DNA of 64,000 nt from the IMG/VR virus record IMGVR_UViG_3300045988_160093; one strand, 5' to 3'. This document shows, one piece after another, positions 12,789 to 58,049 of this stretch. Position numbers and translations under genes: made by a program. Source of the stretch: a virus. Each line of letters opens with the position of its first letter. Positions within the stretch are counted from its first letter, which is position 1. Under the pieces are notes generated by a model, which saw only the letters and a list, made by a program, of their open reading frames with translations, searched no databases and had not been told where the DNA came from.

Positions 12789-12790
12789 AT

Positions 12791-43000: not shown

Positions 43001-46000
43001 AGAAAAGGCGTTCGGACATTTGGAGGAAGGCGGACGTATGGTAGCCATCATCCCGAGGGGTGCGATGGACAAGAAGTTCGACAAATGGTATGACAATGAG
43101 AAGACCGCGGCAATGCGAGCCGAGGTGGACCTTCCTGATATAGTATTCCAGCAGGCAGGAACATCGGTAAGATGCAGAGTGGTAGTCGTTGACAAGATAA
43201 CCGACTCTAAACTCCGTGAGCAGGCGCATATGGAGAAGGCGGATTTGAGTGGTCATTACGACAAGATAGAAGATTTCTTCAACGACCTGCGAAATATAGA
43301 AGTCCCCGACAGGATCATCGATACCAACTTCAAGATGCAGAAGATGAGCAAGAGTGCAGTCAAGAGCTTGAAGGAAATCAGGGATGTATGGTCAGCAGAT
43401 GTTGACAAGGACGGTGTGCACGTCAGGACAAGCAGCTGGATGGGTTACGACATCAGCTTTACGGGTAGCGAAGACCCGAAGCGATGGAAGGACAAGATGG
43501 CGGCGACTTATGACAAGTACGCCCAGATGGAGAAGTCGGAATTGAGAGAAGGCAACAAAGCCGTGTTCGGTGAGTTGAAAGAGCTTGCATGCAAACTTGC
43601 AGGAATGACCGAAGACGAGATGAGAAGGTATCTCGTAAGCAAGGGGGCAGGTAGTGTAAAGTTCCGCAAGAACGACAATCTAACCCCCGAAGAGCGCCGG
43701 TCAGAGGAGCGCATGGAGGAACATCATGTCGAAGTTGCCAAGGCGGCGGAGAATCTGAATACGAAAGTTAACGTGTGTGTGGACATCAATGATGTGACGA
43801 ATGCGGAGGCGAGATCAGCTATAGAAAGAGGTGAGAAAGTGAAAGCTTGGTACGATACCCGAACGGGAGAGGTGCACGTTTATCTTCCAAATGTCACAGA
43901 CAAGTATGACGCACAGATGAGCGTAGCCCACGAGGTGGTAGCCCACAAGGGAATGAGAGGACTCCTTGGTGAGGAAGGCTATCGGAGTATGATGCGCAGA
44001 ATGTACACACACCTTTCCAATGAGGAAGCGAAGGAGGTGAACGAGCGCATGATGAAGAACGGATGGGACTTCTATACAGCAATGGACGAGTGGGTGGCAG
44101 ACAAGGCAGAGGAAAGCGTGTTCACACCAAAGTATGTAGTGATGAAAGACGGTCTGCACCGATACCCATTGGATAAGGTATTCCATATCGTGACGGAGGC
44201 TATGCACGATGTAGGGTATAGGATTAATCCGAACGTGGACGATGTGAAGTACTGGTTGTGGGCGAGCAAGAAGGGATTGAAGAACGGCGATGCCTACACG
44301 GAAATGAAGCGCAACTCGTTCTTGTGGCGACTGAACCACAATACATCGAATGACGGAATTGAGAACGGAGAGTTCGTGGAAACAGGCGGAGTCAGATTCA
44401 GTAATGGAAATAGTAAGTTGAATGGCGAAGATTCAGAAAAATTATTCGCATCTTTGCAAAACAAAAAAGGAAAGGAATATTATGACACAGTTACAGAAAT
44501 CGCAAGAAGAGTTGTCGAACGAAGAAACGGCAAGGCAACAGTTCTTGAAGAATCCAATGGAAAATCGGAGAGTGATACTAATGAGAGCTTCTACGGAGGA
44601 TTTAAAAGTGTTGCTCACTGCGCTGCTTCAATCATCACACATGACGTTGAAAGAAGCGTTTATGCAGATGTCGCGAACAGGGAAAATAAAAGCCGCGGGT
44701 CTGAATCCGCTGGAGAAGGCTTATATGCAAACATTGACAAGAATGTACGGTCACAAGGACTTGGAGCAGAGAACAAGGAGGGGTTGGCTAACCGAGTCAA
44801 CAGAGAAATTTTCAGCAGACTTAAAGACTGGGCTGAGCAAAACCACGCTTGGCTTGATAGACGAAATTTTGGAAAAAAATATCCAACTTCCAATAAAATA
44901 GGCGAAGGCGAGGAAGCAGAAGTATATTTATCAAAAGACGGTAAGAGCGTACTTAAAATCATTCATAATGATACTTATCTAAATCCTGTAGGAAGCAAAC
45001 TTGATGAACTTGCATATGAGAATATAGCATTGGGTGATAACGAGCGTAAGGTTATCGGTTTCATGAAAGACCCGTATGCTTTCAATGATAATATGCTTAT
45101 TCTTGTTGAACAGCCTTATGTTGAAGGCAAAACCGTTGATGAAATTTACGGAGGAGACACTCCCGAAGCCTTGGCTTTTATAGACAAGGTTATGAAAGAT
45201 AAAGGTTTTGAAGTCAAGGAAACCCCATTTAGCGAAGACTTGGATGATTGGCTTGTGAAGACCTACTACAATAGAGATTTTACAATACGTGACGTAAACA
45301 CGGGAAATGTAATTGTAGATAAAGACGGGAAACCACATGTCATTGATGTTTATGCTTTTATTAATCACGGTGAATTTGAGAAGTATGGTGATAATAGTAT
45401 TCCTGCTAATACTGCTAATTTTGAAATCGATTTCACCAAACCGACAAATAAAAGTGCTGAAAGAAAAGTTAACTCACAAGCAAAGGGTAGTGGCAACATC
45501 CGTTTCCGTAAAGACGACAAGGCGAAGCATGAGTCAACCTTGTTCCGCAAACCCAGTCTTGACAGGAGCAAGAACGATACACCTCTGATGTCAGCGACAA
45601 AGGACTCCATCGACAAGGCACTCAACAATTGGAACGCACGAAGAATAGAATGTTGGACCGACGACAAGCACGGACTGAGAGTATTCCAACAGAAGCTTGC
45701 CGAAGGATTGACGAAAGGCATGAACGACAGTATGGACTCCTATCATGGAGCCATTAACCAAAGTTCCATTGTCAGAGAGAAACAATACCAGTTTGAGACG
45801 AGAGAGCTGAAAACGATGAACGATGCCGTGAAGGAATGTACCCGAAAGCTTGGCGGCGGTATGGAAGGATATGAAGAGCTGAATAAGTATGCCTACGTGA
45901 AGAGCGGTCTTGAAAGAAACAGAGTGTTGTTCGTGAGAGACGCAGCAGAGCAGGTAGACAAAAAAATCATGAAGCTCAACAAAGAAGCCCTCGACAAGGA

Positions 46001-48857
46001 CCCACAGGCGACGACCCTCGCCAAGATGGGAGTTGAAGAGTTCAGAGACGCATTCCATTCAGAAAAAAAGTTCCAGGAAACATTGCTCAATTCCGGCAAG
46101 ATAAGCCTTGCAGAATACTACAAAGCCCTTGACGACTTCATAAAAGGTTTCAGTTTTCCACATACAGGTGACGCAGGAAAGAACGCCTTGATAGACAAGC
46201 TCAATGATTGGTATGCCGACAAGATAGGCGGCAAGTATGACGAGAATGAGAATGACTATTCCGGAATAAGGAAATTCGACGACTTTGACAGTGACGCAGA
46301 AAGGATAGACTACGTGATGAATACGGAAGCCACTTTGGGCGAAGGGTCAAAGAACAAGTTGTGGCAAGGAATAGGCGGAGTGACACGTTTCGCCATAGAC
46401 AACGACTATAATTATGGAGTGATAAGCAAGGATGTTCATAGCAGAGTCTCAAGTATGTTCAGTTGGTATATTCCTATGCGAGGATTCAAGGAAGACACGA
46501 TGGAGGATATGTACGCTTATATGCACAATGAGATTTCCGATGGAGGCAATGTCAGTTCGGTAGTAAAGAGAGCCGACGGACGAACGACACTTGCCGACAG
46601 TCCGTTGGGAACGGCAGCAGCCCTTGCGGAGCGCAGTATCTCAAACGGCGAGGACAACCGCAACAAGCAGAGACTTTACAGACTCGTGAACCAGTGGCTG
46701 AAAGACCACACTACGACCAACGAGGACGGAAAGATAGAACTTACCGAAGAAGCCCCGGCAGTGATCAGTGAGGTGTGGTATAAGAAAGTCACCGACCATA
46801 CGACAGGTGAAACATATTGGGAAGCCGTAATGCCGGATATAGACGGAGAGAAGGACCCCAAGCAGATACGCGCGAAAGTGGAACGCTTTGAAGAGAATAT
46901 GCGCAATGCAGAGAAAAACGGCAACGCTACACGAACACTGCAGAAGGGAACGTTTGCCAAGCCATTCAAGGTGGCGAAACACAAGAACGAGCACGTTGTC
47001 TTTGTCAATGTAAACGGAAAGCAGAAGATGATAATCATGCAAGGCAATCCACGTCCTGCACAGGCAATCAACGGAGATACGGCAAGCGATGTGACAGCAG
47101 GCAGGCTGATGAGAGGAATGAGTGCGATGTTCACATCATACAACATAACGTTCAGTGTCACGAATACAAGCAGAGACACCTTCTTCGCCAACAACAACGT
47201 TGCAATCAGAGAAAATGCTGCATATTACGCTCGCTTCGTGAAGAACCAAGCCCTTATGGGAGGTTCTATGCTTCAAGGAACCGTTATGATGAACATGCCG
47301 AAGGTGAAAGGAATGTACTATCAGTTGTGGTCAGACTACAAAAAAGGCAAGAAGCTTACAGGCAAGTACGGTAAATATTTCGAGGAGTATATGAACAACG
47401 GCGGCAAGACAGGCTTCGTACAGACCAAGACGATAGAAGACTTGGAGAAACATATCAGAAATGAAGCTACGCAAAAGATGCTGTCAGCCTCGACGTTGGG
47501 CAAGGTAATGAGTAAGGTGCCCGAAGTGATAGAAGCCTTGAATGAAAGGTCAGAGAATATGAACCGCTTTGCTTGCTACGTGACAAGCAGGGAGATGGGA
47601 AGAAGCGTCATGCGCAGCGTTTCAGATGCGAAGGAGGTCAGCACGAACTTCAACCGCAAGGGTTCAGGAAGCAAAGCCTTCAAAGGAACGAACGCAAAGG
47701 CATGGGAGAAATGGCAGGGATGGTTATATGATAGAGCCAAGAGCTACTATCTCTTCTTCAATGCCGGAATGCAGGGCTTGTCTGTGCTGACCAACAACTT
47801 TGTGAGGCACAAGGTGAAGACCGCGGCCTTTGCAGTAGGAATCCCGATATTGTTCGCGAGCAGTATAATACCGGCCCTCAACAGTTGGATAGCATCCTGC
47901 TTTGACGAGGACGACCAGTATGACAACCTTAGCGAGTGGGAGAGGAGAAACAATATCTGCATATACGCAGGACATTCCAACTGGGTAAAGGTGCCGTTGC
48001 CGATTGAGCTGAGAGCCTTCTACGGCTTTGGAGACATAGCGTTAGGTGTGACAAATCCAGCCTTCCGTTCAGAAAAAGGATTGTGGCTTGACATGCTGTC
48101 ACAGGTGACGCAGATACTACCAGTTGACTTTATGGGAGAAGGCGGAGATTTTTGGGGAGCTTTAATGCCAGATGTTGCCAAACCACTTTACCACGTTTGG
48201 GTTAACAGAGACTGGACCGGCAAGCCTATATACAAAGACTACGATTATCTGAAATACGAGCCCGAATACCAAAAGGTGTTCCAGGGAGAAAACGAGTGGT
48301 TTGTATCGTTCAGCAAATTTATAAACGAGATGAGCGGCGGTAACGAGCACGTGAAAGGTTCTCTTGACGGAAAATGGAACAACCCTGCAATATGGGGTGA
48401 AATCATCACCGGATATGGAGGCGGTGCATTGTCGGATGCCATACGTACAGGAAAGCTGGCAACGAGAGTAGCCACATGGAATTGGGAAGATTTCTCCACA
48501 AGAGAAGTACCGATGGTAAGAGCCTTGTACAGTTCGGCAACCGAGAAAACAAAATACTACAGGTCGCTCAGCAAGTATGCCCATTATAAGGAAGATGCCG
48601 ACAAATACCTGCATGACTTCAAGGCAAATCTGAAAAGCGACAATCCGTTGTATGTGATGAAGGCAATCAGCGATATGAAGCGAGAGTCGCCGGAGTTCGT
48701 GAGGATGGCGAAAATCCACGGGTTTGAGAAGAGTATCAAGGACCTAAAGAAAATCGCCAACAACGAGAAGATTCCGAAGAAAGCCCGCGATGAGGCAAAA
48801 GAGCTCATCAACCAAGAGAAAGTAAAACTCGTGAAAGAATTTGAAAGTGACGAATAG
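34005..48857 (+). CDS. giant (4950 aa) polyvalent protein: helicase + methyltransferase + zincin + kinase-like modules
   Basis: Uninterrupted 14.85-kb ORF with multiple recognisable catalytic motifs (listed as sub-features). Sits in the structural half and is translationally coupled to two upstream genes. Confidence 0.9.
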   Translation: MADKITQVYNAYKADGATRAQSEQQFRNWMYGDNYRRGVWNDLRKQGAQVGTFEHFTEALGYKMNPKVKSKVAKQAIQYGAPKVPDNWGQMDMGRTFANDEMEQQLETQRNNQASSNAKKTGSNEPIAQRVKEKLNRTHLKEASKSGTIMNPLTGEPINNVPTYREKKEGKYWNPITETDMGDAVLDWSTTDANGDKVAQTQTKQNFEADAAAKAIANELTKTADYKGKWAKFDSEFEKHHGLVYHPAEYEENKKYREEGFDDNSKMLYEKYAPKLEDVSALLGSKNAKEAIVAAASKLGITPDDFLNRYVVPATEKANEEEYHKRGIEHFMPKNAWENMKANFAVSSLGNAANKSLVPEEYQNMRNEAVETYSDANSKTLDEKGVFSKEGIQALGRNISGGTARVMPDAVGFVIAGAEAKGVVKGLEIGWKALRGTGLVTKVLGKAVPKTLTSLTKKYGAQTAGRILNAVNNESIGSFIQANARQFAQGSLTMGIFEANNYLATEGREKIKEGKWGEFAEGLYTSGMSGLGTGMLFSGIGTVTGALGRNLGVTGRETTRLEKLKHGTEKALFSASALFVEGLGFRAEDLYDEAKKGELTFGSVLENGGKGVIDKITMDLGMAAGKGKRPSLKQMVVGAVANTNPHVKFSAVEKNELMKSTGGKSLFEALDGIAEGKNVSPVYRTKMSEFFNDPNISRRTKQKVAYVVGKTIDTNMPRTERVSISQGTSGTQEVRTYSKDGELLTVDVYKNAEAAEVAKQEIYAKRDKNDFIALWVDSLKPTQSENNTALENTAKELGYDDVGVFLADWDEAQKSSDADFLSKVSKTINENIGKIVADRHKQMLDAKRAINEEYDVDIDKVLDKNPVMWKDKEREAVKELGSRLKKGFSDKNDEAHNNAIARQDGADLSEQTELEDSEKVIESSQAVNERLDSAVEAWRKMQEENPDLAEWMKNNPDSTVEELRENFGDYVADAYMELSNAKAMRDGFIQNTGEKIEDAVKNQVEQAKFTGTMQNKEGSKVVTDNSVTVFADKDGNEYTLVGGDVIVDSAGDGSYSAGKSGLVIFRDKDGNLIQRTNFDGLNEVGTFSLEDYANRIRTTLQEQKTAEIQSTETPLPESQNKETPKEELPSEAPKSEEPKEEDFIRNSNSEEKLSSEKDEWGNPLIKASDGSVDFGEISEGYGLQAAPIRLSLGENKKNPETGKDEGYGLLHIEARHGDQIRKAGFNSIEEFVESIARDYTEIREGVQIGTTQTYLIVKKDGHANTLYIELSRDGKYWNVNSAGIFKEKYVNRKNEIKPEPTVGSSTSTDTTGVNHGLNEGATVTSGNSPMISDSKDTTKSSDLQEGNETLTFKNTEAAKEESNYEKNDIPMDNEGEPVYEQVPKERTAQDLFDKLGDGNVAHNYAQIRIEGAEKELKEAKKKEPKIGTKINEYLKKKQEYEDRVKAAEDKVAYWESVKEEIEKLTHTTPEELKEAQEELDGTAAREEYKKTVGETQPADGVSLAAEFVVDARITPESFRKETGLSAADQRTFVGMIAGAEKGGKSIERLGEELVEYDNAYYGGAYFHGDSNDARSAIISALMSAKSRKGLREMAQPDMEREVRERARMRDEAYHERYGMDYEEYLSYSEQEMPHILGKLNNFDEQKYLQDKAEEITNQINKEHGKTDRENDSSREESVHGAGDKVLPEERIDDRGRGESPKEHGGREKAERRGNTEDAPLHETPSGGEVEKGERKEEKPSDPSDAAEGMRGAAEQFHEERVEKARKAYEEAKASGDVSETKRTKDEYRKALDDKLKAQGIGLIERRKTIAKEMGEEPKVEKPKGEGPKVGEKQWEDMTPTERAEKADADPLTEDEIRSDEDNKELAAAAIAYLNGDKSLLNQIAYLKIYGNVRSRHEDVPGNSGTEDTSQLAATDNGGGEGMELESGRGSGGTAEPMDRGAGGETAPGKQESGETGKGNADTPAGEGSHIEGEGGAPGLGGLPAGSGGRTGSGNAGSTGSVGRGRGRGSGSRPSKSNGKRKPAAKQGTTFPNSKGRDVKQETKDAKAAMLAAFAEFNKRNKKDKNILSSSFLLGLEKHLPTAEALEYLPDVMKATGRYGVALIGEGIYKTKEWIKNVREAIFDVMKEGGFSDADIDEYIREMWHMPWEMDGETHKIGEWASIKGYAGLRESLKEPLRKKFDKQVLAEPTEVKVGDRKNIEETLPFLLPQQQDDVLKAETQFFDESHKDKAHANGKGYMFTNGTGTGKTYTGLGIIKRMVKQGKGRILIITPSQQKVKDWINDGKNLCLDIRDLDDWANERGSTATNEKGDGVVITTFANFGTNKRLLEDQFDAIVYDESHRIMENKNATETARSRQHYMLSNRNESYALMRLEEINPDCMKMRGLAEDFEDARKKEVERIQAEYRKEHPSENEKEMRFHTSKSLPKDIHSFSISDKAKFPELGKIYEDYIKARDYYINNVKPKLEKQAKESVDKTKVVFLSATPFNTRENIEYAEGYLFSYPERNEMGQSGKTQFFLEHFGAGYKYRYHRLESSTSNAEALAKQEIAFSDWLQNDLGTMSGRVIDSPFDYSRDFPTVSVEHADEFNTACEEISRDKIFGDAYRKVLGDYNYGSALFETMKVSALLPRLREHLAAGRKIVIFHRRVTSKEPLKAPFGMILGEQAEQTIKALPKEKQPEARTRLNELRDRYSGLLEWEKTLDFSMPREQLAKAFGEDNVLYFSGSENKKVKSEAVKQFNDDNSGKNIIVIQEASGKEGISLHDTTGKHQRVCITLALPQSPITALQIEGRTYRIGNESNAIFEYPVLGLTSEYNLFASKFNRQVSTTENLALGSQARNLRDSFARGIEEHSGVVPIDQQGVGGKEFDKGDANENDPFDNAVLDYYTNQRLNKNNREGVDYFPTPEPLGYKMVEWANIGEGDSVLEPSAGHGAIARYVPQSNELVAIEPSMSLFAKLQMKAGGLGRKFQNETFEAYHISNKHDTIVMNPPFGHAGATAIAHIEKAFGHLEEGGRMVAIIPRGAMDKKFDKWYDNEKTAAMRAEVDLPDIVFQQAGTSVRCRVVVVDKITDSKLREQAHMEKADLSGHYDKIEDFFNDLRNIEVPDRIIDTNFKMQKMSKSAVKSLKEIRDVWSADVDKDGVHVRTSSWMGYDISFTGSEDPKRWKDKMAATYDKYAQMEKSELREGNKAVFGELKELACKLAGMTEDEMRRYLVSKGAGSVKFRKNDNLTPEERRSEERMEEHHVEVAKAAENLNTKVNVCVDINDVTNAEARSAIERGEKVKAWYDTRTGEVHVYLPNVTDKYDAQMSVAHEVVAHKGMRGLLGEEGYRSMMRRMYTHLSNEEAKEVNERMMKNGWDFYTAMDEWVADKAEESVFTPKYVVMKDGLHRYPLDKVFHIVTEAMHDVGYRINPNVDDVKYWLWASKKGLKNGDAYTEMKRNSFLWRLNHNTSNDGIENGEFVETGGVRFSNGNSKLNGEDSEKLFASLQNKKGKEYYDTVTEIARRVVERRNGKATVLEESNGKSESDTNESFYGGFKSVAHCAASIITHDVERSVYADVANRENKSRGSESAGEGLYANIDKNVRSQGLGAENKEGLANRVNREIFSRLKDWAEQNHAWLDRRNFGKKYPTSNKIGEGEEAEVYLSKDGKSVLKIIHNDTYLNPVGSKLDELAYENIALGDNERKVIGFMKDPYAFNDNMLILVEQPYVEGKTVDEIYGGDTPEALAFIDKVMKDKGFEVKETPFSEDLDDWLVKTYYNRDFTIRDVNTGNVIVDKDGKPHVIDVYAFINHGEFEKYGDNSIPANTANFEIDFTKPTNKSAERKVNSQAKGSGNIRFRKDDKAKHESTLFRKPSLDRSKNDTPLMSATKDSIDKALNNWNARRIECWTDDKHGLRVFQQKLAEGLTKGMNDSMDSYHGAINQSSIVREKQYQFETRELKTMNDAVKECTRKLGGGMEGYEELNKYAYVKSGLERNRVLFVRDAAEQVDKKIMKLNKEALDKDPQATTLAKMGVEEFRDAFHSEKKFQETLLNSGKISLAEYYKALDDFIKGFSFPHTGDAGKNALIDKLNDWYADKIGGKYDENENDYSGIRKFDDFDSDAERIDYVMNTEATLGEGSKNKLWQGIGGVTRFAIDNDYNYGVISKDVHSRVSSMFSWYIPMRGFKEDTMEDMYAYMHNEISDGGNVSSVVKRADGRTTLADSPLGTAAALAERSISNGEDNRNKQRLYRLVNQWLKDHTTTNEDGKIELTEEAPAVISEVWYKKVTDHTTGETYWEAVMPDIDGEKDPKQIRAKVERFEENMRNAEKNGNATRTLQKGTFAKPFKVAKHKNEHVVFVNVNGKQKMIIMQGNPRPAQAINGDTASDVTAGRLMRGMSAMFTSYNITFSVTNTSRDTFFANNNVAIRENAAYYARFVKNQALMGGSMLQGTVMMNMPKVKGMYYQLWSDYKKGKKLTGKYGKYFEEYMNNGGKTGFVQTKTIEDLEKHIRNEATQKMLSASTLGKVMSKVPEVIEALNERSENMNRFACYVTSREMGRSVMRSVSDAKEVSTNFNRKGSGSKAFKGTNAKAWEKWQGWLYDRAKSYYLFFNAGMQGLSVLTNNFVRHKVKTAAFAVGIPILFASSIIPALNSWIASCFDEDDQYDNLSEWERRNNICIYAGHSNWVKVPLPIELRAFYGFGDIALGVTNPAFRSEKGLWLDMLSQVTQILPVDFMGEGGDFWGALMPDVAKPLYHVWVNRDWTGKPIYKDYDYLKYEPEYQKVFQGENEWFVSFSKFINEMSGGNEHVKGSLDGKWNNPAIWGEIITGYGGGALSDAIRTGKLATRVATWNWEDFSTREVPMVRALYSSATEKTKYYRSLSKYAHYKEDADKYLHDFKANLKSDNPLYVMKAISDMKRESPEFVRMAKIHGFEKSIKDLKKIANNEKIPKKARDEAKELINQEKVKLVKEFESDE
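37470..37870 (+). other. domain with the YGLLHIEARHGDQI motif (candidate nuclease/toxin-type module)
   Basis: A compact globular-looking segment between low-complexity linkers, with conserved-looking His/Arg/His (H at about aa 1211). Confidence 0.3.
40600..42480 (+). other. SNF2/DEAD-like superfamily-2 helicase module
   Basis: Walker A GTGTGKTY (40728), DESH box (41013), SATPF, and C-terminal QEASGKEGISLHD and QIEGRTYRIGN blocks. Confidence 0.8.
42690..43200 (+). other. N6-adenine DNA methyltransferase module
   Basis: Motif I VLEPSAGHGAIA and motif IV NPPF (42957). Confidence 0.75.
43700..44300 (+). other. zincin-like metallopeptidase module
   Basis: HEVVAH (HExxH) at 43929 within MSVAHEVVAHKGMRGLLGEEGY. 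Confidence 0.6.
44890..45400 (+). other. protein-kinase-like fold module
   Basis: G-loop GEGEEAEV, Lys in SVLKI, hinge LVEQPYVEG, catalytic-loop-like IRDVNTGNVIV, and an IDV in place of DFG. Confidence 0.6.
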
Positions 48858-48904: not shown

Positions 48905-49531
48905 TTAAGGGAACGGGTGCATCCCCTTGCGCAGCCTGCCCGGTTTGTAGCTCAAGAGAGCGTTGTGGATTTCCTCTAAAGACAATTCCATCTGCTGCTC
49001 CTTTGATGCAGTGACAGGGTCCTTTGCGGTAAGGTACAACAAAAGGTATTCATACAAGCATCCGTTTACGATGTAGTCGTGGATAGCATCCGTCAAAGGA
49101 GTCAAGGCGTTTTCGTTCCACCAATCGCCCACCGACATTGCGATGTCAATCTCTTCGTTGTCCCTTATCCTGTCAGACGCAGCAGGAATATCCTCCTGCT
49201 TCAATACCGAAGCGAGTTTCCTTTTGGCAAGAGAAAGATATTTGTTGAACCATCTTTGCAAGAGAGGACCAACGGCATCCGTGTTCTCGATATTGTTGTC
49301 CTGCAAGCCCTTCTCGTTGCGCCTACTACGGGTGATGATACTCAGTTCGGCTTCAACATCATAGATAAGCTGGGGGCGCATAATATAAATATGGTATTCC
49401 CTTTTCTGTTTGCCACATACATTAGCCCTGCCGGTCATGCGATTGCAGTCACATTCCAGTTCAGAGGAAATGGCATATCTCTCAACGGCATCACATTGAG
49501 GATTGTTCGGGTCGTGATAAATGTTACTCAT
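48905..49531 (-). CDS. hypothetical structural-module protein
   Basis: 208-aa ORF with a 4-nt overlap with the rhomboid gene. Confidence 0.55.
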   Translation of the reverse strand: MSNIYHDPNNPQCDAVERYAISSELECDCNRMTGRANVCGKQKREYHIYIMRPQLIYDVEAELSIITRSRRNEKGLQDNNIENTDAVGPLLQRWFNKYLSLAKRKLASVLKQEDIPAASDRIRDNEEIDIAMSVGDWWNENALTPLTDAIHDYIVNGCLYEYLLLYLTAKDPVTASKEQQMELSLEEIHNALLSYKPGRLRKGMHPFP

Positions 49532-49986
49532 AAGAATTTCAGTTTTAGTAAATGATACACACTATACATTATTATATATCCAAGGAAGAGAGAATATATA
49601 TGGATGAAGAAGTTAACCCCAGGCAGCAGTCCGATCAGAACGGCAAACGGGAGAATCCTCCTGCACATAGGATAAAAACCTGCAGAGTAAGCCCACGTTG
49701 CACCGATATGCGCAAACAGGACCGCAGACAATCCCATAGTGGCAGTATCACCCATAGGAAGAAAAGAAGCAGCCACAGCAGCAATGTAAGCCACAATGCC
49801 AACATTCTTTCTGAATGACAACAGGGCAACCAAATTGGCAAGCAAGTGAAAGACGTTCGCATGGGAAAACGGATAGAAGAAATGAGATACACCATATTCA
49901 TTCCATACGAACGAACATCTGTACCCAAGCAGGAACGCCAAGAAAACGGCAACCGCTATAGAAGCGTTAGTCAAGTTAAATTTCAT
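49528..49986 (-). CDS. minimal rhomboid-family intramembrane serine protease
   Basis: 152 aa with about 6 TM helices. Contains HANVFHLLAN (HxxxxHxxxN), GLSAV (GxSx catalytic Ser) and NFFIHIYSLFLG (catalytic His helix). Confidence 0.7.
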   Translation of the reverse strand: MKFNLTNASIAVAVFLAFLLGYRCSFVWNEYGVSHFFYPFSHANVFHLLANLVALLSFRKNVGIVAYIAAVAASFLPMGDTATMGLSAVLFAHIGATWAYSAGFYPMCRRILPFAVLIGLLPGVNFFIHIYSLFLGYIIMYSVYHLLKLKFL

Positions 49987-50744
49987 TCTTCAACAATTAT
50001 GGTTACGAGATTCTTTACAATCGGGTCGTGTCGGGAATATAGCTGCAAGGTAGCCATACCGCTTTCCCTTCCAAAGACAGAGAAGGAATTGTCATTATGA
50101 GACGCGACCTGCATGATGGCGAGATTGAGAGAAGTCGCTTCAATATCATTGGTAGCATCTTCATCAATAGAGTAAGAGATAACAGCCGTCTCGCCTTTTT
50201 TTACCTTTACGGCAGCATCCGGTACATGGATAGCTGTAGTGTAAGGATATTTCGGAGCCATCGGCGGTGTACGGTCGAAGCACTTTAGAATCGGAGTCAG
50301 GATGCGCTCAGACATTTCAGAATAGTCAGCAGCCCTCTTCGGGTTGATTGGAGCCCACCACAACATCAGCATCTTCTTTATTATGAAATCAGAGCCAAGA
50401 CGGGCAAGAGTATCTTTATTGGCATTGTTGAATCTGTCAGAAACCTCCATCCTGTATTTCACGGCAGCACTGTCCGACAAGTCAAGGAAAACCGCATTGT
50501 CAGCAGCAGTCAGATATTTCTGCGTAGCAAAGTCAGACATAAACGTTTTCAGTTCCTCAGCCGCCGTGAGCATATCCCTTTGGAGTTTCCTCTCCTTGTA
50601 TTCATCATCACCAGCCTGCTCGTGATATGCAAGTCTTGTAGCCTTTTCATCAGCCGCCCTGTCAGAATTGGAAGTGATGAGCGTTTCAGACTTGACCGCA
50701 TCCAAAATCGTGGAGCGTAAAAGAATAAGTTGTATAGTCTTCAT
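49983..50744 (-). CDS. hypothetical structural-module protein
   Basis: 253-aa ORF. Confidence 0.55.
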   Translation of the reverse strand: MKTIQLILLRSTILDAVKSETLITSNSDRAADEKATRLAYHEQAGDDEYKERKLQRDMLTAAEELKTFMSDFATQKYLTAADNAVFLDLSDSAAVKYRMEVSDRFNNANKDTLARLGSDFIIKKMLMLWWAPINPKRAADYSEMSERILTPILKCFDRTPPMAPKYPYTTAIHVPDAAVKVKKGETAVISYSIDEDATNDIEATSLNLAIMQVASHNDNSFSVFGRESGMATLQLYSRHDPIVKNLVTIIVEE

Positions 50745-50755
50745 ATAGTATGTAT

Positions 50756-51226
50756 TTATGATATTTCACCTGTAGTCTCGTCAAGAGGCGAAGAAGAAGT
50801 CACCACCTTGGACCTGTTGAAAACAGAGTTGCGGATATTGGAAAGCAAGACATCACACTCCGTAATATATTTCTTAGCCAGTTCAGAACCCGTCATAGAC
50901 AAGTACTGAGCAAGACAATACGCACGAGCATAACTTGACACAAGGTCGTTATACATCTCCGTAAGGTCGTCAGTAATACCATTGTTGACTGAAATGAGAA
51001 TCTCATCCCCATCCTTATGATAATTGTTTATACACTCAGGAGCGATGGCGACAACCGATAGAACGGCATCCTTGGCAAGTCCCGTTATCAGTCCTTTCTC
51101 CCTTGACGAGAGGGCGAACGTAGTATAAGTCGGTTCGCCACCTTCGTTCTTAATCCTCTTGCTGATCATCGCCAGCTGGTCCTGCACATTGTCAAAGACC
51201 GAAGAAATGTCAATTTTTATTCTCAT
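50756..51226 (-). CDS. hypothetical structural-module protein
   Basis: 156-aa ORF. Confidence 0.55.
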   Translation of the reverse strand: MRIKIDISSVFDNVQDQLAMISKRIKNEGGEPTYTTFALSSREKGLITGLAKDAVLSVVAIAPECINNYHKDGDEILISVNNGITDDLTEMYNDLVSSYARAYCLAQYLSMTGSELAKKYITECDVLLSNIRNSVFNRSKVVTSSSPLDETTGEIS

Positions 51227-51238
51227 AACATTATAATA

Positions 51239-53371
51239 TTAAATAGAAGCCTCGGTAACACCTTCCCTTTCCTTTACCCTCTTCTGCATAACCTTCCAAG
51301 TCGGGCGCTCCATATCATAGAGAGAAACCCACAAGGCAATGGCAGTAGACATAACGACATCATCATGGTTGTCCCTGCCGACGATATTACCCATAGAACC
51401 ATCCTCTCTGCGCTCGTAAATCCTCAACTCCTGGTAGCAAGTCTCGTCAGGCTCGTTCCATAGCTTATCATCAACGGCAGCAATGAGATTGTCGATAATC
51501 TGGACCTTGGTCAGTTTGTTGGTCTGGAATCCGAATTTCATCACAATCTTGTCAGCGACCTCTTCCGACCCCGTAGAACGCTGATACAAGTTTTCATAGA
51601 AGTCAGCTATCTCCTCGATGAGAGTAGCGAAGTGGTCACCCTCGGTATTGGAGTTACGCTCCCTGTCGGCAGTGTTGGACTCAATGACAAGCAGGGCATT
51701 GTCGTAGAAGTGTGCCAATGCAGCAGCCTTCCAAGCAAGCAAATCATGACGGCAGTGTCCCCTCCATCGGGCAACGACCTGCGGGATGCCACCCTTCATT
51801 TCCGGCATCAGTCCCTTGCGGTCGATAACCGTCATTACCGTATAGTCAGAACCTTGGCTCTTGCCACCAATATCCACCGCAACGACATACCTGTTCTTGA
51901 TGTTCAGAATGTTGTTGTTAGGCAAGTTCCATATCTTCAAGTCTCCATCCTCGCAAAAGTCAATCTGAGCTTTAAGATAGAAGCTCTTGCTTTTCTTCAT
52001 GCCATAAGGCAGACGGATGTCAGCCCTGTAAAGCGGTTCACGCAAGTATCTCTCTTTGAGTTCGTCAATAGCGTACTGATCGAAGACAAGGTTACCGCTG
52101 TTTCGGAAAGCCTCTACCGGGTCAACGGGAGCCTCCGTCGCCATATAAGCGTGGTTCTTGAATTTGTTTCTCGTATGCCGATACCAGTTGATAGCCTGAA
52201 AGCAAGCCCCCAGTTTCCACATACGCCAGAAGAACCTTCCCGATTCACGGAAACCTTTAGGCTTTGCCTGACTATCCTTGTTGACGAGAAGCCATCGTGC
52301 AAACTCATACCTGTTATCCACCTTCTCCATATCGTGTTCGATGTGGAAGAACGGAACAAAGATAAACTTGTAGGCATCGTTGTTGTCGGGATTCATGGCG
52401 CTTTGGCATTTGTCGTAGAAGAATCCCGACATACCACGACCTGTAGACTCAAAAATCTCAATGTTGTCAGGAATACGCAAGATACTACCCGACACAGAAG
52501 ACAATACAGCTTCCGGGTCATGCTCGTCAGACTGCTTCCAATAAGCCACCTCAGAGTAGTGGGCGCAATGAAAGTTAGAACCGCGAACATTATCATAGTT
52601 GTCAAAAGACGCAACCGTGATAGTAGAAGTACGCACAGGCTTTCTTCCGTCAGTCACAACGAAGTCGTCGGTAGAACCCTCATACGGAGACATCTGCAGC
52701 TGTCTTCCAGGCAGACCGATGGTCCATCCTTTCTGCTTCTCGATAGCCTTGCGGTACATCGCCTTAATCTTCTTTGATGTAGCCTTCACCTGAGAGAGGA
52801 CAATAGAGTTCCATCCGTCGGGGTGTCTGAAATCCTGCATCCATTTGATGTAAAGCTGCGAAAGTGTGGAGCCACCCCATTGCCTCGCCTTCAAGATGAT
52901 GACAAATATAGGTTGGTTGGATTTTCTCAGAGACTCGAAAAGTGCCAGCAGTCTGCGTTGAGGATAGTTCAATCTGAACGGAACCATCATACCCGTAGTC
53001 TTGTCCTCGATTTTATCGGTGAGATAGAGAGCGAACTCCGGGTCCTCACGCATACGAGCCTTACATATTTCAAAAGACACCGCCGTAGATAGTTGTTCAG
53101 AATAATCCTTTCCCCACACATCAGTGATATATTTCTGAATAGAACCGACGCTGACAACATCTTTCAGTACCCTGTTCAGAAGACACTCCTTCGGTACATA
53201 CATAAGAGGATAAATCATATCAGGAATCTCTATCCTCACCCTGTTCTCGAAGTCGTAGCATCCCCTTCCTGTCACAGGGTCATATTCACCGAAGATTTCC
53301 TTCATCCTCTCATCATCTTCGGCAATCAGTTCCTCTATTTTCTTCTCAAGTTCCTCTTCCGTCATATTCAA
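51239..53371 (-). CDS. terL: terminase large subunit
   Basis: 710 aa. ATPase block VIILKARQWGGST. Nuclease-type acidic blocks VAVDIGGKSQGSDYTVMTVID and NHDDVVMSTAIALW. Confidence 0.8.
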   Translation of the reverse strand: MNMTEEELEKKIEELIAEDDERMKEIFGEYDPVTGRGCYDFENRVRIEIPDMIYPLMYVPKECLLNRVLKDVVSVGSIQKYITDVWGKDYSEQLSTAVSFEICKARMREDPEFALYLTDKIEDKTTGMMVPFRLNYPQRRLLALFESLRKSNQPIFVIILKARQWGGSTLSQLYIKWMQDFRHPDGWNSIVLSQVKATSKKIKAMYRKAIEKQKGWTIGLPGRQLQMSPYEGSTDDFVVTDGRKPVRTSTITVASFDNYDNVRGSNFHCAHYSEVAYWKQSDEHDPEAVLSSVSGSILRIPDNIEIFESTGRGMSGFFYDKCQSAMNPDNNDAYKFIFVPFFHIEHDMEKVDNRYEFARWLLVNKDSQAKPKGFRESGRFFWRMWKLGACFQAINWYRHTRNKFKNHAYMATEAPVDPVEAFRNSGNLVFDQYAIDELKERYLREPLYRADIRLPYGMKKSKSFYLKAQIDFCEDGDLKIWNLPNNNILNIKNRYVVAVDIGGKSQGSDYTVMTVIDRKGLMPEMKGGIPQVVARWRGHCRHDLLAWKAAALAHFYDNALLVIESNTADRERNSNTEGDHFATLIEEIADFYENLYQRSTGSEEVADKIVMKFGFQTNKLTKVQIIDNLIAAVDDKLWNEPDETCYQELRIYERREDGSMGNIVGRDNHDDVVMSTAIALWVSLYDMERPTWKVMQKRVKEREGVTEASI

Positions 53372-55332
53372 CCTTGTTTAAGCATTTGTTGAGCGTTCTG
53401 CACATTCTGCTCAGACATCATCTGCTGCTGCGGCGACATCTGCTGCTGTTGCATTGCGAGCTGCTGTTGCATAGCCGCCTGAGCCTCGGCAGACTGAACC
53501 TGCTGCAAGAGCATATCCTTGAACGGCAGATTGATACACTGTAGATACTGAGAGATGTTGATTGCGCCAAGCTGGAGCAACTGCAATGCTGTATCATTAA
53601 TCTGTGACTGATAAGCGACAGAAGCCGTGCTCTCCTTGATAGAAATCTTGAACATCACATCACGAGCCGAAAGCCGGTCATATTCAATGATGCTTGTATT
53701 ATCCTTGTTCATAATCGGTCTTCCGTTGTCGTAATATTGCTTGATGTTAGACACCTTCTTCTTGGCAAGTTTCTCCGTAAACACCGTCATGTCAGAAAGC
53801 AGAGAATAAAGAGAAGTCGTAGCGTTCTGCTGCTCCATCGCATAACGAGAAAACGAAGTGCCGGCAGAAGGAGTCTTGCCCTGCAAAGCGCCGCTCACAT
53901 TTGTAATCTCCTTTGTAAGGTTGAGCTGCATCTGCAACAACTCCGTAGTGCCAATCTGTACTGCATTAGATGTAATAATCTCCGGTCTCGCATTCGGGTT
54001 AAGACGGGAAGTCTCATAGAAGATGATGCCGTCATACTCGGTAAATTCATCCGCAAAATCCTGTGGCGTCATATCGTCAGGAATACAACCCTTTGGGACG
54101 ATAGTGATACCCTTTGCAGAAGAACGAGCCGCCATATCGTGCATTACAATAAGACGATTGATATACCTCTGCTGATCGATGATGTTAGACATGAACGGAT
54201 GCACCTCACCATTAACGAACGGGTAAAGTTTAAGCGTGAACGGATGCGCATTGTATTCATAGGGACATTCACCTTCACATAAGATAGTTCCGTCGGGAGC
54301 AAGAAAAGAGTAATACCAGAACACATCTTCAATCGGGCTTGTCGTTATGTAAGCCCTCTGTTCCTTCGGTACACCCACCTTGTCATAAGCCTCCTTCCTC
54401 TTTCTGTTAATCTCCTTTATACGGGGAAGGTCTTTCAATTCAATCCTGAACCTTGCATCGTCAGCGTTCCCTGCTATAGGGTCTTCACACTGTAATCTCT
54501 GTTTGGACTCCTTTGTCCACACCTCGATAACCCTGCGGCAACTCCTGTCGGCAGACGAAAAGAAATTGATATTGGAGAGATTTCCGCCGTCATTCTGCTG
54601 CAAGTCAGAAGTCTCGTCATAGCAGTCACCCATATTGAAAATGCGGTCGATGTCCTCAATCGTCCATCCCAATTCAGGTTTTGCGAATTTTGAATACAAT
54701 TCAGGGCGAGAGCAGTCATGAAGGAGACCAATGGTAGTAACGTCCTGGTGACGGGGATCAGTGCCCCCATCCCAGAACGCCATGTTCGGGTTACAATAGT
54801 CCGTCCATGTATCATAGACTCCATCACGCTCCTCGTAACATTCCCGACAAAGAGCGACGCCGCCAGTGAGATAATCCCGGAAAACGGTAGAGAGTACATC
54901 CGGCATGAAGGTGTCCTGCCAGTTAGCCTGCAGTGTAGCCGACATCATATCCGAAAGCCATTGGGAATCATGGGTACGAGCAAAGCAGACAGGTTCGGTA
55001 GCCTGTTTTTCATACATACCAGCAAGAGTGGAGAAGACAGAAATCATGATATTGTTCGTAAGAGGGACATTACCCTTCTTTTTCAGATACTCCCTTTCTG
55101 TGATATATCCACATTTGTAGTAAATCACATCACCCCATTGGTCACCGAAAGTATAATTGTTTGTCCTTTCCCTGACCTCTCTGAGTTTTCTCTTGTTCTC
55201 CCAAAGTTGGTTGCAACGTGCGACAAGGTTGTAATCCCTCTTGCCGCAGGAAACGGTCCGCTTCCTTCGAATAGACGTTGCCTTGCCCTTGTCGGACACA
55301 TCATTAAGAGTATATAAACGTTTAAGTGGCAT
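53368..55332 (-). CDS. portal protein (start re-set to ATG 55332)
   Basis: 654 aa with a 4-nt overlap with terL and a Gln-rich C-terminal tail. The call rests on size and synteny only. The promoter box at 55350-57 argues against the GTG at 55350. Confidence 0.6.
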   Translation of the reverse strand: MPLKRLYTLNDVSDKGKATSIRRKRTVSCGKRDYNLVARCNQLWENKRKLREVRERTNNYTFGDQWGDVIYYKCGYITEREYLKKKGNVPLTNNIMISVFSTLAGMYEKQATEPVCFARTHDSQWLSDMMSATLQANWQDTFMPDVLSTVFRDYLTGGVALCRECYEERDGVYDTWTDYCNPNMAFWDGGTDPRHQDVTTIGLLHDCSRPELYSKFAKPELGWTIEDIDRIFNMGDCYDETSDLQQNDGGNLSNINFFSSADRSCRRVIEVWTKESKQRLQCEDPIAGNADDARFRIELKDLPRIKEINRKRKEAYDKVGVPKEQRAYITTSPIEDVFWYYSFLAPDGTILCEGECPYEYNAHPFTLKLYPFVNGEVHPFMSNIIDQQRYINRLIVMHDMAARSSAKGITIVPKGCIPDDMTPQDFADEFTEYDGIIFYETSRLNPNARPEIITSNAVQIGTTELLQMQLNLTKEITNVSGALQGKTPSAGTSFSRYAMEQQNATTSLYSLLSDMTVFTEKLAKKKVSNIKQYYDNGRPIMNKDNTSIIEYDRLSARDVMFKISIKESTASVAYQSQINDTALQLLQLGAINISQYLQCINLPFKDMLLQQVQSAEAQAAMQQQLAMQQQQMSPQQQMMSEQNVQNAQQMLKQG

Positions 55333-55349
55333 ACGAAAAACTTTTTTCA

Positions 55350-55357
55350 CAAAAATA
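55350..55357 (-). promoter_or_regulatory. -7 box TATTTTTG (minus strand) for the portal/terL operon
   Basis: The plus strand reads CAAAAATA. Confidence 0.45.
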
Positions 55358-55486
55358 CAAATATGCGGATTGTGTTTTTCCGAACCCGCACATCGTCAGC
55401 GGTGTGAACGAGAACCAAGGAGAAAAATAATCAAGACATATCATAGCAGTTTCGGCGAGAACGGAAATAACGGGTAGTAAAAGACT

Positions 55487-55494
55487 TATTTTTG
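55487..55494 (+). promoter_or_regulatory. -7 box TATTTTTG (plus strand) for the scaffold/capsid operon
   Basis: Lies 24 nt upstream of the ATG at 55518. Confidence 0.45.
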
Positions 55495-55517
55495 CGGTAT
55501 AAACAATCCAATGAACT

Positions 55518-56297
55518 ATGAGCGCTAAGGATAACAAAGAAGAAATAATCGAGGAGCAGCAGGTGCAAGAACCAGCACCAGAGCCTACCCCAAACAGGGA
55601 CGCCTACAAAGCCTCCTTTGGAGAAGACTATCCCGATGTGGACTTTGAAGACAAGGAGACACGTTACGGGAAGATGGTAGAAGACCGCAACGCCCTGAGA
55701 AGCTACAGAAAGTCGGGAGCGAAACTGAATGATACGTTCAGCAAGAACCGTTGGCTTGCAGCCATGCTGCAGGACATTTCAGAGAACGAAGACCCGGACT
55801 ATTCACCCCTTGACTGGATGGCAGACCACGGCATTGACATCAATGAAGCCATGCAGGACGAAAGTGTCAGAAAGAAAGTATCAGAAAAGATTGCCAAGTT
55901 CCAGCAGGCGCAGCTTGAAGGCGAGAAAGAAAACGAGGAGCGACAAGCCAATTTCGCAAAATCAGCAGAAGCCCTGAAAACTCTGAATCTCGGCGAAGAC
56001 AAAGAAAGAGAAGTATGGGTGGATTTCTTCTCAAATGTCATAGACCCGGCATTAAGAGGAGAGGTCAGCAAAGAGACATGGCAGATGATCGTGAACGGCA
56101 TGAACTACGACAACGACATTGCGGAAGCCAAGGAGACATCAGCGATGAAGGCAAGAAACGAGAAGATTGCCAACAAGGTAAAGAAATTTGACGAGCCTAT
56201 GCCTCCAAGCCTTTCACAGGGCGGTTCGGGACAACAGGCAACGACCAAGCCGAAGAAGAGAGGATTCTTCGATGATTTGAAAGAAGCAGGATATTAA
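55518..56297 (+). CDS. scaffolding-like protein
   Basis: 259 aa, acidic and helical. Positioned between the portal and capsid genes. Confidence 0.45.
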   Translation: MSAKDNKEEIIEEQQVQEPAPEPTPNRDAYKASFGEDYPDVDFEDKETRYGKMVEDRNALRSYRKSGAKLNDTFSKNRWLAAMLQDISENEDPDYSPLDWMADHGIDINEAMQDESVRKKVSEKIAKFQQAQLEGEKENEERQANFAKSAEALKTLNLGEDKEREVWVDFFSNVIDPALRGEVSKETWQMIVNGMNYDNDIAEAKETSAMKARNEKIANKVKKFDEPMPPSLSQGGSGQQATTKPKKRGFFDDLKEAGY

Positions 56298-56321: not shown

Positions 56322-58049
56322 ATGAGAAGAATGAGAAAGTTTTTTGAGAATAAGACTATGGCAGCACAGCTTCTGCTTATAGTCTTGGCTGTCATAACAG
56401 GCGGTATCGGAATGGCAGCAGGTGCGACAATCGGTGCAGAAGGACCAGAACCTGTAGGTAAAGAAGAGCCCCATGACCCGGCAGACCCCGATGCAGGTAC
56501 AGGTCAGAGACCAGATGCGGATGGCAATCAGAACGCAAGACTTGCTCCTGGTGATACTACTGCAGGTCAGAACCTTGACGGAACACAGGCATCATCCACA
56601 CAGGCACGCCAAGGCGGTCTTGAAGACGAAGAGTGGGACTCGGAGGTAACCAAGTTCCAGCCTTTCCGTAACCCGTTGCTGGCATTGGCAAGACAGGTAA
56701 CACGAAAGGTGAACATCAGTAACTGGACAGTCAGCCACGGCAGAGTGGGTGGTGAAACCCTTGACGGAAGAACCAAGGTGAAGATTACGGCAGAGTCAGA
56801 CGGTTCAATCAAGTTGACCTCTACCAATTTCCGTGGTTCACTGAAACCATTCTATAAGTGTTCAACGCTGCTCGTACCAAGCGTTTCCGGATATTCCAAG
56901 AACTCAACAAGCACCAATCTCGTGAAAGAGGGTGGACTTATGCTCTATGTGGTAGAGAACACAGGAACTGCAGTTATCTGTCGTGCGGTGAACGGCATTC
57001 CGACCGATGATGTCATTCAGGACGATTTGGACTCAAAGAAATGCCCGGAGATTCCAGCCGACACATACATCTGTGCCGCTTCCACTGCAATGTCAGAAAG
57101 CCAGTTGCTGCTGACGCCGGAGAACTACCAGCCACGCAAAGAAGTGTTCTATGTGCAGAAGAAAGGTTTCAACATCGTGTTCACCGACGACTACGAGAAG
57201 ACAAAGAAGAAGCAGCCGCTCAAAGTTGCCGACCTCAAAGCCGACTCGGTGTATAAATACAATATGCGAGCAAACCGAACCTATTGGGCAGGAATACAGG
57301 GCAAGTTCCAAGTGCGCAACCAAGACGGCTCAATGGAAGACGTGTTTACGACCAAAGGTATTCTGTGGCAGCTCACCAACTCATACGAGTATGAGAAGGG
57401 CAAGCTGAAATTGGCAGACTTGGTAGCAATCAGTAAGTTGCAGTTTACCACATTCTCGCAGACCGACAGTGCTTATGTATTCTGTGGAAAAGACGCGATG
57501 GAAGAGTTGCTCAACCTGCAGATGACCGGCACCACACGCATCATCAACTTTGAGGATGTGAAAGACATGGAGCTTGACTTCAAGCGTTTCAAGAGCACTT
57601 ATGGTACACTGAACTTCATTTGGGACCAGGGACTCGACTCTCTCGGCTATAAGGACGCAATGGTCGTTGTAGACCTCAAAGGCGCAACCCGATACGTGAA
57701 GATGGGTCAGAAAGACCAGACCAACGATATGTCGAAGGGAGCAGGCGAAATCCGTGAAGCAAAGCGTTACATCAGAACAGAGGCAGACGGAATCGCACTC
57801 AGAGGCTACAACTCAATCATCGTGCTACCTGTAGGCAGAGCATCAGGTCTGCCAGAGTCACAGATGCGTTCAAAGGTAATCAGCTCGCCAGTACTGCCAG
57901 CCGACAATGCGACAACCGACAAGATGATTGTGGCGCTTACCGCAGACTACAAGGACACCTACAAGAAGGGTCACGCTTATCAGGCGACTGTTTCAGACGG
58001 CACTGTGACATGGAACGAATATACAGGATATACGTCAGTCATAATGTAA
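56322..58049 (+). CDS. major capsid protein candidate with N-terminal TM-like helix and disordered propeptide-like region
   Basis: 575 aa. Follows the scaffold-like gene and is followed by a very strong terminator. Called on position and size only. Confidence 0.55.
   Translation: MRRMRKFFENKTMAAQLLLIVLAVITGGIGMAAGATIGAEGPEPVGKEEPHDPADPDAGTGQRPDADGNQNARLAPGDTTAGQNLDGTQASSTQARQGGLEDEEWDSEVTKFQPFRNPLLALARQVTRKVNISNWTVSHGRVGGETLDGRTKVKITAESDGSIKLTSTNFRGSLKPFYKCSTLLVPSVSGYSKNSTSTNLVKEGGLMLYVVENTGTAVICRAVNGIPTDDVIQDDLDSKKCPEIPADTYICAASTAMSESQLLLTPENYQPRKEVFYVQKKGFNIVFTDDYEKTKKKQPLKVADLKADSVYKYNMRANRTYWAGIQGKFQVRNQDGSMEDVFTTKGILWQLTNSYEYEKGKLKLADLVAISKLQFTTFSQTDSAYVFCGKDAMEELLNLQMTGTTRIINFEDVKDMELDFKRFKSTYGTLNFIWDQGLDSLGYKDAMVVVDLKGATRYVKMGQKDQTNDMSKGAGEIREAKRYIRTEADGIALRGYNSIIVLPVGRASGLPESQMRSKVISSPVLPADNATTDKMIVALTADYKDTYKKGHAYQATVSDGTVTWNEYTGYTSVIM

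Follow-up and report, generated by a model that had tools for sequence, protein, structure and literature searches.

In this work, a 64,000-nucleotide stretch of viral DNA (IMG/VR virus record IMGVR_UViG_3300045988_160093; hereafter the window) was analysed, and the minus-strand open reading frame (ORF) at 49528..49986, which lies in a head and packaging operon, was confirmed by sequence comparison and structure modelling to encode a genuine rhomboid, complete in its catalytic residues. Based on these findings, we propose that the likeliest job of this rhomboid would be to remove the signal-peptide-like membrane anchor of the major capsid protein (MCP), in place of a missing prohead protease, and we give this reading, in which we infer the MCP as the substrate, a probability of roughly 0.45. 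Slightly more tentative is the general form of the proposal, namely that tailed phages of gut Bacteroidota, across a widespread clade, may make their HK97-fold MCP as a membrane-targeted precursor that a phage rhomboid, not a prohead protease, would free. The features of the enzyme are as follows.

49528..49986, minus strand: mini-rhomboid intramembrane serine protease, 152 amino acids (aa), ATG start, six transmembrane (TM) helices (Pfam, family profile, AlphaFold2, Foldseek and charge bias)
49834..49863, minus strand: TM helix 2 motif H42-x4-H47-x3-N51, aligned to HLSNLHILFNL of GlpG
49723..49734, minus strand: TM helix 4 motif G85-L-S87-A with the catalytic Ser (S87 at 49726..49728), aligned to GLSGVVYA of GlpG
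49579..49602, minus strand: TM helix 6 with the catalytic H129 (49600..49602) and then S132-x3-G136, aligned to AHISGLIVGL of GlpG

Taken as a single sequence, the window protein gave borderline evidence for its identity: it matched Pfam Rhomboid at E 6e-4 with 20.5 bits, just under the cut-off of 22.6, over profile positions 7-137 of 143. Rhomboid was the sole family matched, a PHROG search gave no match, and against the sequences of the PDB both the single sequence and a shallow 11-sequence profile found chance matches to monobodies only. A word-indexed search recovered just 12 close relatives, while an exhaustive HMMER search started from the close-relative alignment recovered 293 representative relatives, mostly of 140-180 aa, 116 of which, down to ~22% identity, constitute the family alignment used here. 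In these 116 sequences H47, G85, S87 and H129 are invariant, H42, N44 and N51 are conserved at 90% or more, and 94 members match Pfam Rhomboid individually, the best at 8.9e-16. With E values of 6e-10 to 1e-7, the family profile matches GlpG of E. coli and of H. influenzae from end to end, the helix-2, helix-4 and helix-6 motifs being in register, and it also matches iRhom1/2, more weakly.

Structure prediction required the same depth of alignment, as AlphaFold2 returned an unusable model (pLDDT 55) with 11 sequences and a model of six long helices with pLDDT 96 and pTM 0.90 with 116. The best 29 fold matches of this model in a Foldseek search of the PDB are all GlpG or iRhom, with probability 1.0 and TM-scores up to 0.69, and the closest viral fold matches are 155-160-aa proteins named 'Protein glpG-like protein' from Podoviridae sp. 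ctzXp5 and ctsfx1, both metagenomic podovirus records. Since, over the 116 members, the two termini together with loops 2 and 4 contain 8.5 Lys and Arg per protein, versus 1.0 for loops 1, 3 and 5, a GlpG-like topology is predicted, with both termini inside and the active site toward the periplasm. The second His and the Asn of the H-x4-H-x3-N motif contribute to the oxyanion hole of GlpG; H47 and N51 align with these residues, and together with the S87/H129 dyad they argue for an active intramembrane protease. The "mini-rhomboids", of about 145-175 aa, are a distinct family in a large clade of Bacteroides/Prevotella phages, and the window protein is a new subfamily member within a known enzyme family. 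An earlier note on this DNA had described an ORF with all three rhomboid motifs in order, about six TM helices and 4-nucleotide overlaps at both start and stop, and had suggested profile search and structure prediction of the 152-aa product; the ORF and motifs lie exactly at 49528..49986, the model has the six helices, both searches give a rhomboid, and both overlaps are seen as ATGA, with ORF 49983..50744 upstream and ORF 48905..49531 downstream.

The proposed substrate is encoded on the opposite strand.

56322..58049, plus strand: MCP, 575 aa, HK97 fold of the SU10/DUF5309 type (profile, and homologues with Pfam SU10_MCP)
56322..56438, plus strand: MCP residues 1-39, signal-peptide-like membrane anchor (Kyte-Doolittle 2.3-2.6)
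56439..56663, plus strand: MCP residues 40-114, acidic, Pro/Gly-rich low-complexity linker before the conserved capsid fold (alignments)

The profile of this MCP matches PDB entry 9in6, 'major capsid of VP1', at E 1e-14. Its N-terminus reads MRRMRKFFENK, then TMAAQLLLIVLAVITGGIGMAAGATIGA, then EGPEPVGKEEPHDPADPD, that is, a basic start followed by a 28-residue uncharged stretch (residues 12-39) with a TGGIG helix-breaker and the small-residue end GMAAGATIGA, and the hydrophobic N-terminus that had been ascribed earlier to the capsid-protein candidate is thus a real one. Anchor and linker together are an N-terminal add-on, not present in anchor-less homologues, and the MCPs of Mel-JY34 and SU10 begin at the core. 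All MCPs of rhomboid-bearing loci have the same architecture: a basic start, 17-37 uncharged residues, a hydrophobic-x-hydrophobic-Ala end and an acidic Pro/Gly-rich linker, with Gly/Ser helix-breakers such as TGGxG, GASSG and LGAD within the anchors. The N-termini of 43 representative MCPs, with a mean net charge of +2.3 in the N-flank and -2.2 in the C-flank, fit the layout of Sec signal peptides, having a basic n-region and a hydrophobic h-region, and most end in small residues followed by D/E. The element G-x(1-4)-[GSA]-[VI]-x-[ML]-A occurs in 23 of 36 MCP cluster representatives and in 5 of 151 background windows, counted with an ad hoc regular expression that serves description only. The helix-destabilising G/S clusters and this recurrent element would both be traits of a rhomboid substrate. 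Whatever the role of the rhomboid, an anchor followed by a 50-75-aa acidic linker, seen clade-wide (window 56322..56663; loci L001-L112 and L148-L194), is unusual in a capsid protein.

The association of the rhomboid with the anchored MCP was assessed in loci fetched in three walks that started from the MCP, not from the rhomboid. The rhomboid is present in 106 of the first 109 sequences with an MCP, and the other three are cut off upstream; in the third walk, ~27 loci with Mel-JY34-like or other anchor-less MCPs all came without a rhomboid, even at E < 100 where this was re-checked, and SU10 and Microcystis phage Mel-JY34 have neither MCP anchor nor rhomboid. The MCPs were clustered at 70% identity, threshold artefacts were fixed by hand, and the following counts are on informative loci; locus L033, whose contig ends 625 bp past the TerS-like gene with no rhomboid match in that interval, was counted as uninformative.

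Anchored MCP clusters: rhomboid present in 22, no rhomboid in 3
Anchor-less MCP clusters: rhomboid present in 0, no rhomboid in 9

The Fisher p of this association is 4e-6, with no correction for phylogeny. In addition, the MCP and the rhomboid are the sole proteins above the TM threshold in the head and packaging modules that were checked. Because the MCPs of rhomboid-bearing loci are all anchored and anchor-less homologues never occur with a rhomboid, the MCP is a credible substrate.

The genes around the rhomboid and the MCP place both in one head and packaging module, transcribed as two divergent operons.

53368..55350, minus strand: portal protein, 660 aa, first gene of the minus-strand operon (Pfam P22_portal, E 1.6e-33; PHROG 156, E 2.8e-62)
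51239..53371, minus strand: large terminase subunit (TerL), 710 aa, in the same operon as the rhomboid (PHROG terminase match)
50756..51226, minus strand: PHROG 19255 paralogue, 156 aa, between the terminase and the 253-aa protein
49983..50744, minus strand: PHROG 19255 paralogue, 253 aa, whose stop overlaps the rhomboid start by 4 nucleotides
48905..49531, minus strand: PHROG 19255 paralogue, 208 aa, whose start overlaps the rhomboid stop by 4 nucleotides; final gene of the operon, convergent with the giant ORF
55518..56297, plus strand: highly charged 259-aa protein directly upstream of the MCP in the divergent operon (PHROG 22323, function unknown; no Pfam match)
34005..48857, plus strand: giant polyvalent protein, 4950 aa (helicase, methyltransferase and LPD38 domains)

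Rhomboid synteny and overlapping frames hold from 97% down to ~28% identity. A relative at 56% identity, on a 75-kb IMG/VR contig, has the gene order of the window, and relatives at 28-45% identity have the order TerS-like (140-150 aa), rhomboid, TerL, with overlapping frames, in an operon divergent from scaffold and MCP, and with a P22-type portal and a polyvalent protein of 2,700-6,000 aa nearby. In most relatives a TerL homologue lies directly downstream of the rhomboid and the rhomboid is 1.2-2 kb from the MCP start; translational coupling of the rhomboid to TerL is nearly universal. By its position in these loci, the rhomboid is a core late gene of the clade, co-expressed with portal and terminase, and not a moron. 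This agrees with the earlier claim of co-translation with late genes, as the overlap of its frame with head and packaging genes is kept to ~30% identity, and the survey of head modules in related viromes that had been suggested finds the rhomboid recurrently beside TerL. The D/E/K-rich product of 55518..56297, whose place just ahead of the MCP is conserved in the sampled loci, is probably a scaffolding protein and not a protease. Searches of the head-module ORFs in Pfam and PHROGs, and of the ten largest remaining ORFs of the window in Pfam, found no classical prohead protease, and to this extent the earlier remark that none is recognisable holds.

In the proposed model, the rhomboid is predicted to lie in the host inner membrane, its two termini in the cytoplasm and its active site open to the periplasmic leaflet. 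First, the N-terminal anchor would target the MCP precursor to the membrane, and the Gly/Ser-rich helix-breaker and the hydrophobic-x-hydrophobic-Ala element would be placed within the outer leaflet, level with the active site of the rhomboid. Upon cleavage at that element, the capsid domain, held on an acidic linker whose 50-75 residues would be long enough to loop back through the membrane, could be freed and then assemble with the separate scaffold protein. What the analysis shows is the homology, the fold, the invariance of the catalytic residues, the topology bias, the conserved place in the operon and the co-occurrence with anchored MCPs; the catalytic activity, the substrate, the cleavage site, the loop-insertion geometry and the timing are inferred.

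Several observations weigh against the removal of the MCP anchor by the rhomboid, the first of them being orientation. As the N-flank is basic and the C-flank acidic in 40 of the 43 representatives, the anchors are predicted to insert N-in/C-out, as type II, Sec-signal-peptide-like segments, whereas well-studied rhomboid substrates, for example TatA and Spitz, are N-out; the depth of the site would be right but the direction of the chain wrong. Simple type II insertion would moreover put the capsid domain into the periplasm, and full export of a capsid protein would be senseless. A loop-insertion intermediate of the kind formed by signal peptides, with the acidic linker threading back to the cytoplasm, is our speculation on a way round this problem. 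Second, host signal peptidase I could cut the anchors at their A-x-A-like ends, and their P2' position is usually small or acidic, while the recognition motif published for AarA/GlpG reportedly has a large, hydrophobic P2'. Third, the anchored group is essentially one clade, so the Fisher statistic overstates independence. Finally, in three anchored lineages (L145/L146, L149 and L162) the DNA fetched, 1-10 kb to either side, contains no rhomboid; TerL and the TerS-like gene are immediate neighbours in L162, and TerL of L146 has neither a rhomboid nor a TerS-like gene beside it. Hence the rhomboid is either not always needed or located elsewhere in those genomes.

The MCPs of these three lineages are at the following positions of their own loci.

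L146, 9431..10810: anchored MCP, no rhomboid in the DNA fetched
L149, 9374..10777: anchored MCP, no rhomboid in the DNA fetched
L162, 9311..10777: anchored MCP, no rhomboid in the DNA fetched

The hydrophobic architecture of the MCP N-terminus is different in L145/L146, L149, L162 and L179/L180, where the segment is either longer or placed internally, with a VAGVAGxGxH-like stretch after it. In L179/L180 the hydrophobic segment is internal, at ~residues 65-95, and no rhomboid is visible in the DNA fetched. No replacement protease stood out in the ORF lists of the rhomboid-less L146, L149, L162 and L180, of which no family-library search was made.

An active rhomboid might instead cut another membrane protein, either a phage lysis component (holin/antiholin, signal-anchored endolysin or spanin) or a protein of the host envelope, and thereby serve lysis timing, receptor removal or superinfection exclusion, the anchored MCP being then an unrelated trait of the lineage. 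We regard this as unlikely, even though small TM proteins and lysis-like genes do occur elsewhere in the genomes (L006 16202..17181 beside DUF5675; a putative Glyco_hydro_19 endolysin near the rhomboid of the deviating locus L111), and the 175-aa rhomboid of Stenotrophomonas phages DLP3/DLP5 is an example of a phage rhomboid outside the structural module. The three anchored lineages lacking a nearby rhomboid and the misfit of the MCP orientation with canonical substrates would also be accounted for. What speaks for the MCP in preference is that most relatives keep the rhomboid, its frames overlapping with its neighbours, at a fixed place between TerL and the TerS-like gene, and not in a lysis region, that no further protein of that module passes the TM threshold, and that the rhomboid never accompanies an anchor-less MCP homologue.

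Somewhat less likely again is a role in quality control or like that of a signal peptide peptidase, in which host signal peptidase I or another host enzyme would remove the MCP anchor and the rhomboid would clear leftover anchor peptides or stalled precursors. Leftover signal peptides would be N-in, which is the orientation predicted here, the MCP as the most abundant late protein would impose a high load on the membrane, and lineages without a rhomboid could use host enzymes; the resemblance of the anchors to Sec signal peptides with A-x-A-like ends points the same way. However, known clearance of signal peptides is by SppA or RseP-type enzymes, not by rhomboids, and if signal peptidase I made the cut, the capsid domain would have to be exported, so that the topological problem would be the same as before. 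The anchors also break the Q rule of Bacteroidetes, as only 4 of the 43 representatives have a Gln between -6 and +4 relative to where the uncharged stretch ends, the rule being a Gln at +1 of the mature protein in signal peptidase I substrates (as cited in PMC10367356).

The wider model of the earlier note, in which the rhomboid would release the 31660 protein and the giant protein as well as the MCP, each being membrane-tethered at first, is improbable in that form, and of its tethering and release of virion components only the MCP part gains support, from the co-occurrence of anchor and rhomboid. All three proteins do have Gly-rich hydrophobic stretches. But the stretch of the 237-aa 31660 protein (31660..32373, plus strand), which had been named as a TM segment, is under the TM threshold used, and this protein weakly matches Pfam T7_gp14, a family of internal virion/ejection proteins, at E 6.6e-4; in such proteins, hydrophobic segments serve for insertion into the membrane when the phage infects. 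An ejection-protein block is probably formed by the 31660 protein, the following ORF (32375..34003) and the giant ORF. In the giant protein, the proposed stretch at ~residue 527 is not flagged as TM, the sole flagged segment being residues 4604-4627, just N-terminal to LPD38. No co-occurrence evidence was found that would tie either protein to the rhomboid, and neither is supported as a substrate. Least probable of all is that the rhomboid acts without cutting, as derlins and iRhoms do, by membrane thinning or as a chaperone or dislocase for insertion or extraction of the MCP anchor, since, although rhomboid-fold pseudoproteases with such roles are known and the model matches iRhom structures too, the Ser, the His and the helix-2 H-x3-N, which pseudoproteases typically lose, are invariant or nearly so in the 116 members, which argues for retained catalysis.

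Further features of the window concern the neighbourhood and the phage at large. The PHROG 19255 family, whose function is unassigned in PHROGs, occurs in 28 fetched loci only, which make up the window-like subgroup, and other relatives have the TerS-like gene beside the rhomboid. A homologue of that TerS-like protein (E 5e-28) is encoded at 586..1047 on the minus strand, ~50 kb from the terminase, which implies that the gene order was rearranged in this lineage. In the giant polyvalent protein, a ResIII/SNF2-like helicase spans ~aa 2223-2810 and a methyltransferase ~aa 2951-3018, ahead of the C-terminal LPD38; its homologues in relatives, of up to ~6,000 aa, have ART-PolyVal, MuF_C, RadC and other domains. 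The N-terminal 132 residues of the product of 1898..2926 (minus strand) match Pfam Tad3 (type I Thoeris inhibitor, E 3.8e-21), and this is likely an anti-defence gene. On the minus strand, 11170..14782 and 23220..24062 encode a recombination module (MBL-fold protein, RecT and SMC/AAA_15-like ATPase) and a Rha/ANT antirepressor-type protein, the latter of which hints at a temperate or pseudolysogenic lifestyle, as in the cultured 'TP' relatives. A search for tRNA genes in the window found none. A hydrophobic ORF of 71 aa at 55322..55537 (minus strand), upstream of the portal in the divergent portal/scaffold intergenic region, was not counted as a gene, as it has relatives in the closest phage only and is probably translated promoter or intergenic DNA.

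The rhomboid arrangement is common to three cultured Bacteroides phages, BF1-TP2, BS-TP4 and BKO1-TP3. In GenBank, gp59 of BF1-TP2 is labelled 'rhomboid family intramembrane serine protease' and gp8 of BS-TP4 'rhomboid domain-containing protein', and both are true homologues in the same operon position; the rhomboid of BKO1-TP3, gp50, is mislabelled 'glycoside hydrolase'. In all three records (PQ571263.1, PQ571277.1 and PQ571269.1, our loci L113, L195 and L196) the large terminase is misnamed 'tail spike protein', and the MCPs, which are gp56 of BF1-TP2, gp11 of BS-TP4 and gp47 of BKO1-TP3, are labelled DUF5309 or DUF2951. The label 'YajC' of BS-TP4 gp5, which would have been a link to the Sec translocon, was dropped, since Pfam gives weak SH3-like matches only. 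These phages were reached by tblastn with an L005-type MCP query only; megablast of the region and tblastn of the window rhomboid, the window MCP and the L006 MCP found nothing among GenBank phages. Among reference genomes, close rhomboid relatives are limited to three small metagenome-bin contigs, from Prevotella, Bacteroides and a "Clostridium" bin.

The paper that describes the three isolates never mentions the rhomboid gene, the labels being automatic; our literature searches found annotation-level mentions only of phage rhomboids, and no paper in the library searched connects capsid maturation with rhomboids or with intramembrane proteases of any other kind. That the gene exists, auto-labelled as a rhomboid in cultured phages, is already known, while the maturation role proposed here is undescribed, so that the earlier statement of novelty for tailed phages stands for the role and not for the gene, which GenBank already names. 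If true, the proposal would add a membrane-coupled step, so far undescribed, to the capsid assembly of tailed phages, and the usual rule on substrate orientation would be challenged by a rhomboid whose substrate is N-in, which is not canonical. Natural substrates of bacterial-type rhomboids are mostly unknown, and the MCP would be a clear and abundant candidate for one. To our knowledge, the mini-rhomboids of 143-175 aa are among the smallest catalytically complete rhomboids, and their size makes them attractive for structural and mechanistic work. The idea is directly testable, since the three cultured Bacteroides phages hold the pair of rhomboid and MCP genes.

Among known systems, the mini-rhomboid is most readily compared with GlpG of E. 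coli and H. influenzae (PF01694, MEROPS S54), with which it shares the six-helix core, HxxxxHxxxN in helix 2, the GxSx Ser in helix 4, an aromatic residue at +4 (F91, counted from S87, where GlpG has tyrosine), the His in helix 6 and the predicted N-in/C-in topology. However, at 152 aa versus the 180-196 aa of crystallised GlpG constructs, it is ~30-40 residues shorter than the core, has 14-18% identity and no cytoplasmic domain, and is phage-encoded within a head and packaging operon. Its L1 loop is strongly reduced, to ~20 residues, and is without the WR motif, which is likewise lacking in the family consensus; W28 is kept among close relatives only and has no Arg after it. The WR motif of the L1 loop is typical of most rhomboid proteases but is not catalytic. 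In the alignment, the helix-6 sequence H129-IY-S132-LFL-G136 is a variant of the AHxxGxxxG helix-packing motif, with Ser for the first Gly of GxxxG; in the family consensus, Gly predominates at the second of the two positions, and the first varies. The 'rhomboid membrane protein' of DLP3/DLP5 lies among the non-structural genes of a Stenotrophomonas siphophage, unlike the mini-rhomboids of head operons.

A processing event of a related kind is known from Providencia stuartii, where AarA activates TatA by trimming a short N-terminal segment beside its membrane helix (PMC3712462). TatA is cut after a small residue with a hydrophobic P4 (IATA|A), which resembles the V-x-M-A of the MCP anchors. 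Nevertheless, TatA is N-out and cut N-terminal to its helix, whereas the MCP anchor is predicted to be N-in, its candidate site is C-terminal to the helix, and the substrate would be a capsid protein. Closer in host range, phages of Porphyromonas gingivalis (Nixviridae) have MCPs with predicted signal peptides, whose cleavage was ascribed to phage prohead proteases (PMC10367356). Those phages, like the present ones, infect Bacteroidota and have a signal-peptide-like MCP start, but here a rhomboid is conserved and no prohead protease was found. From the classical prohead proteases (such as HK97 gp4 and T4 gp21) the rhomboid differs as an integral membrane enzyme of unrelated fold, which in the Pfam and PHROG searches matched no known prohead protease family. 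The classical enzymes are soluble, are packaged inside the prohead and act after shell assembly, while the rhomboid, being membrane-integral, would have to act before or outside shell closure. Even so, in both cases a protease encoded in the head gene cluster would take an N-terminal pro-region off the MCP.

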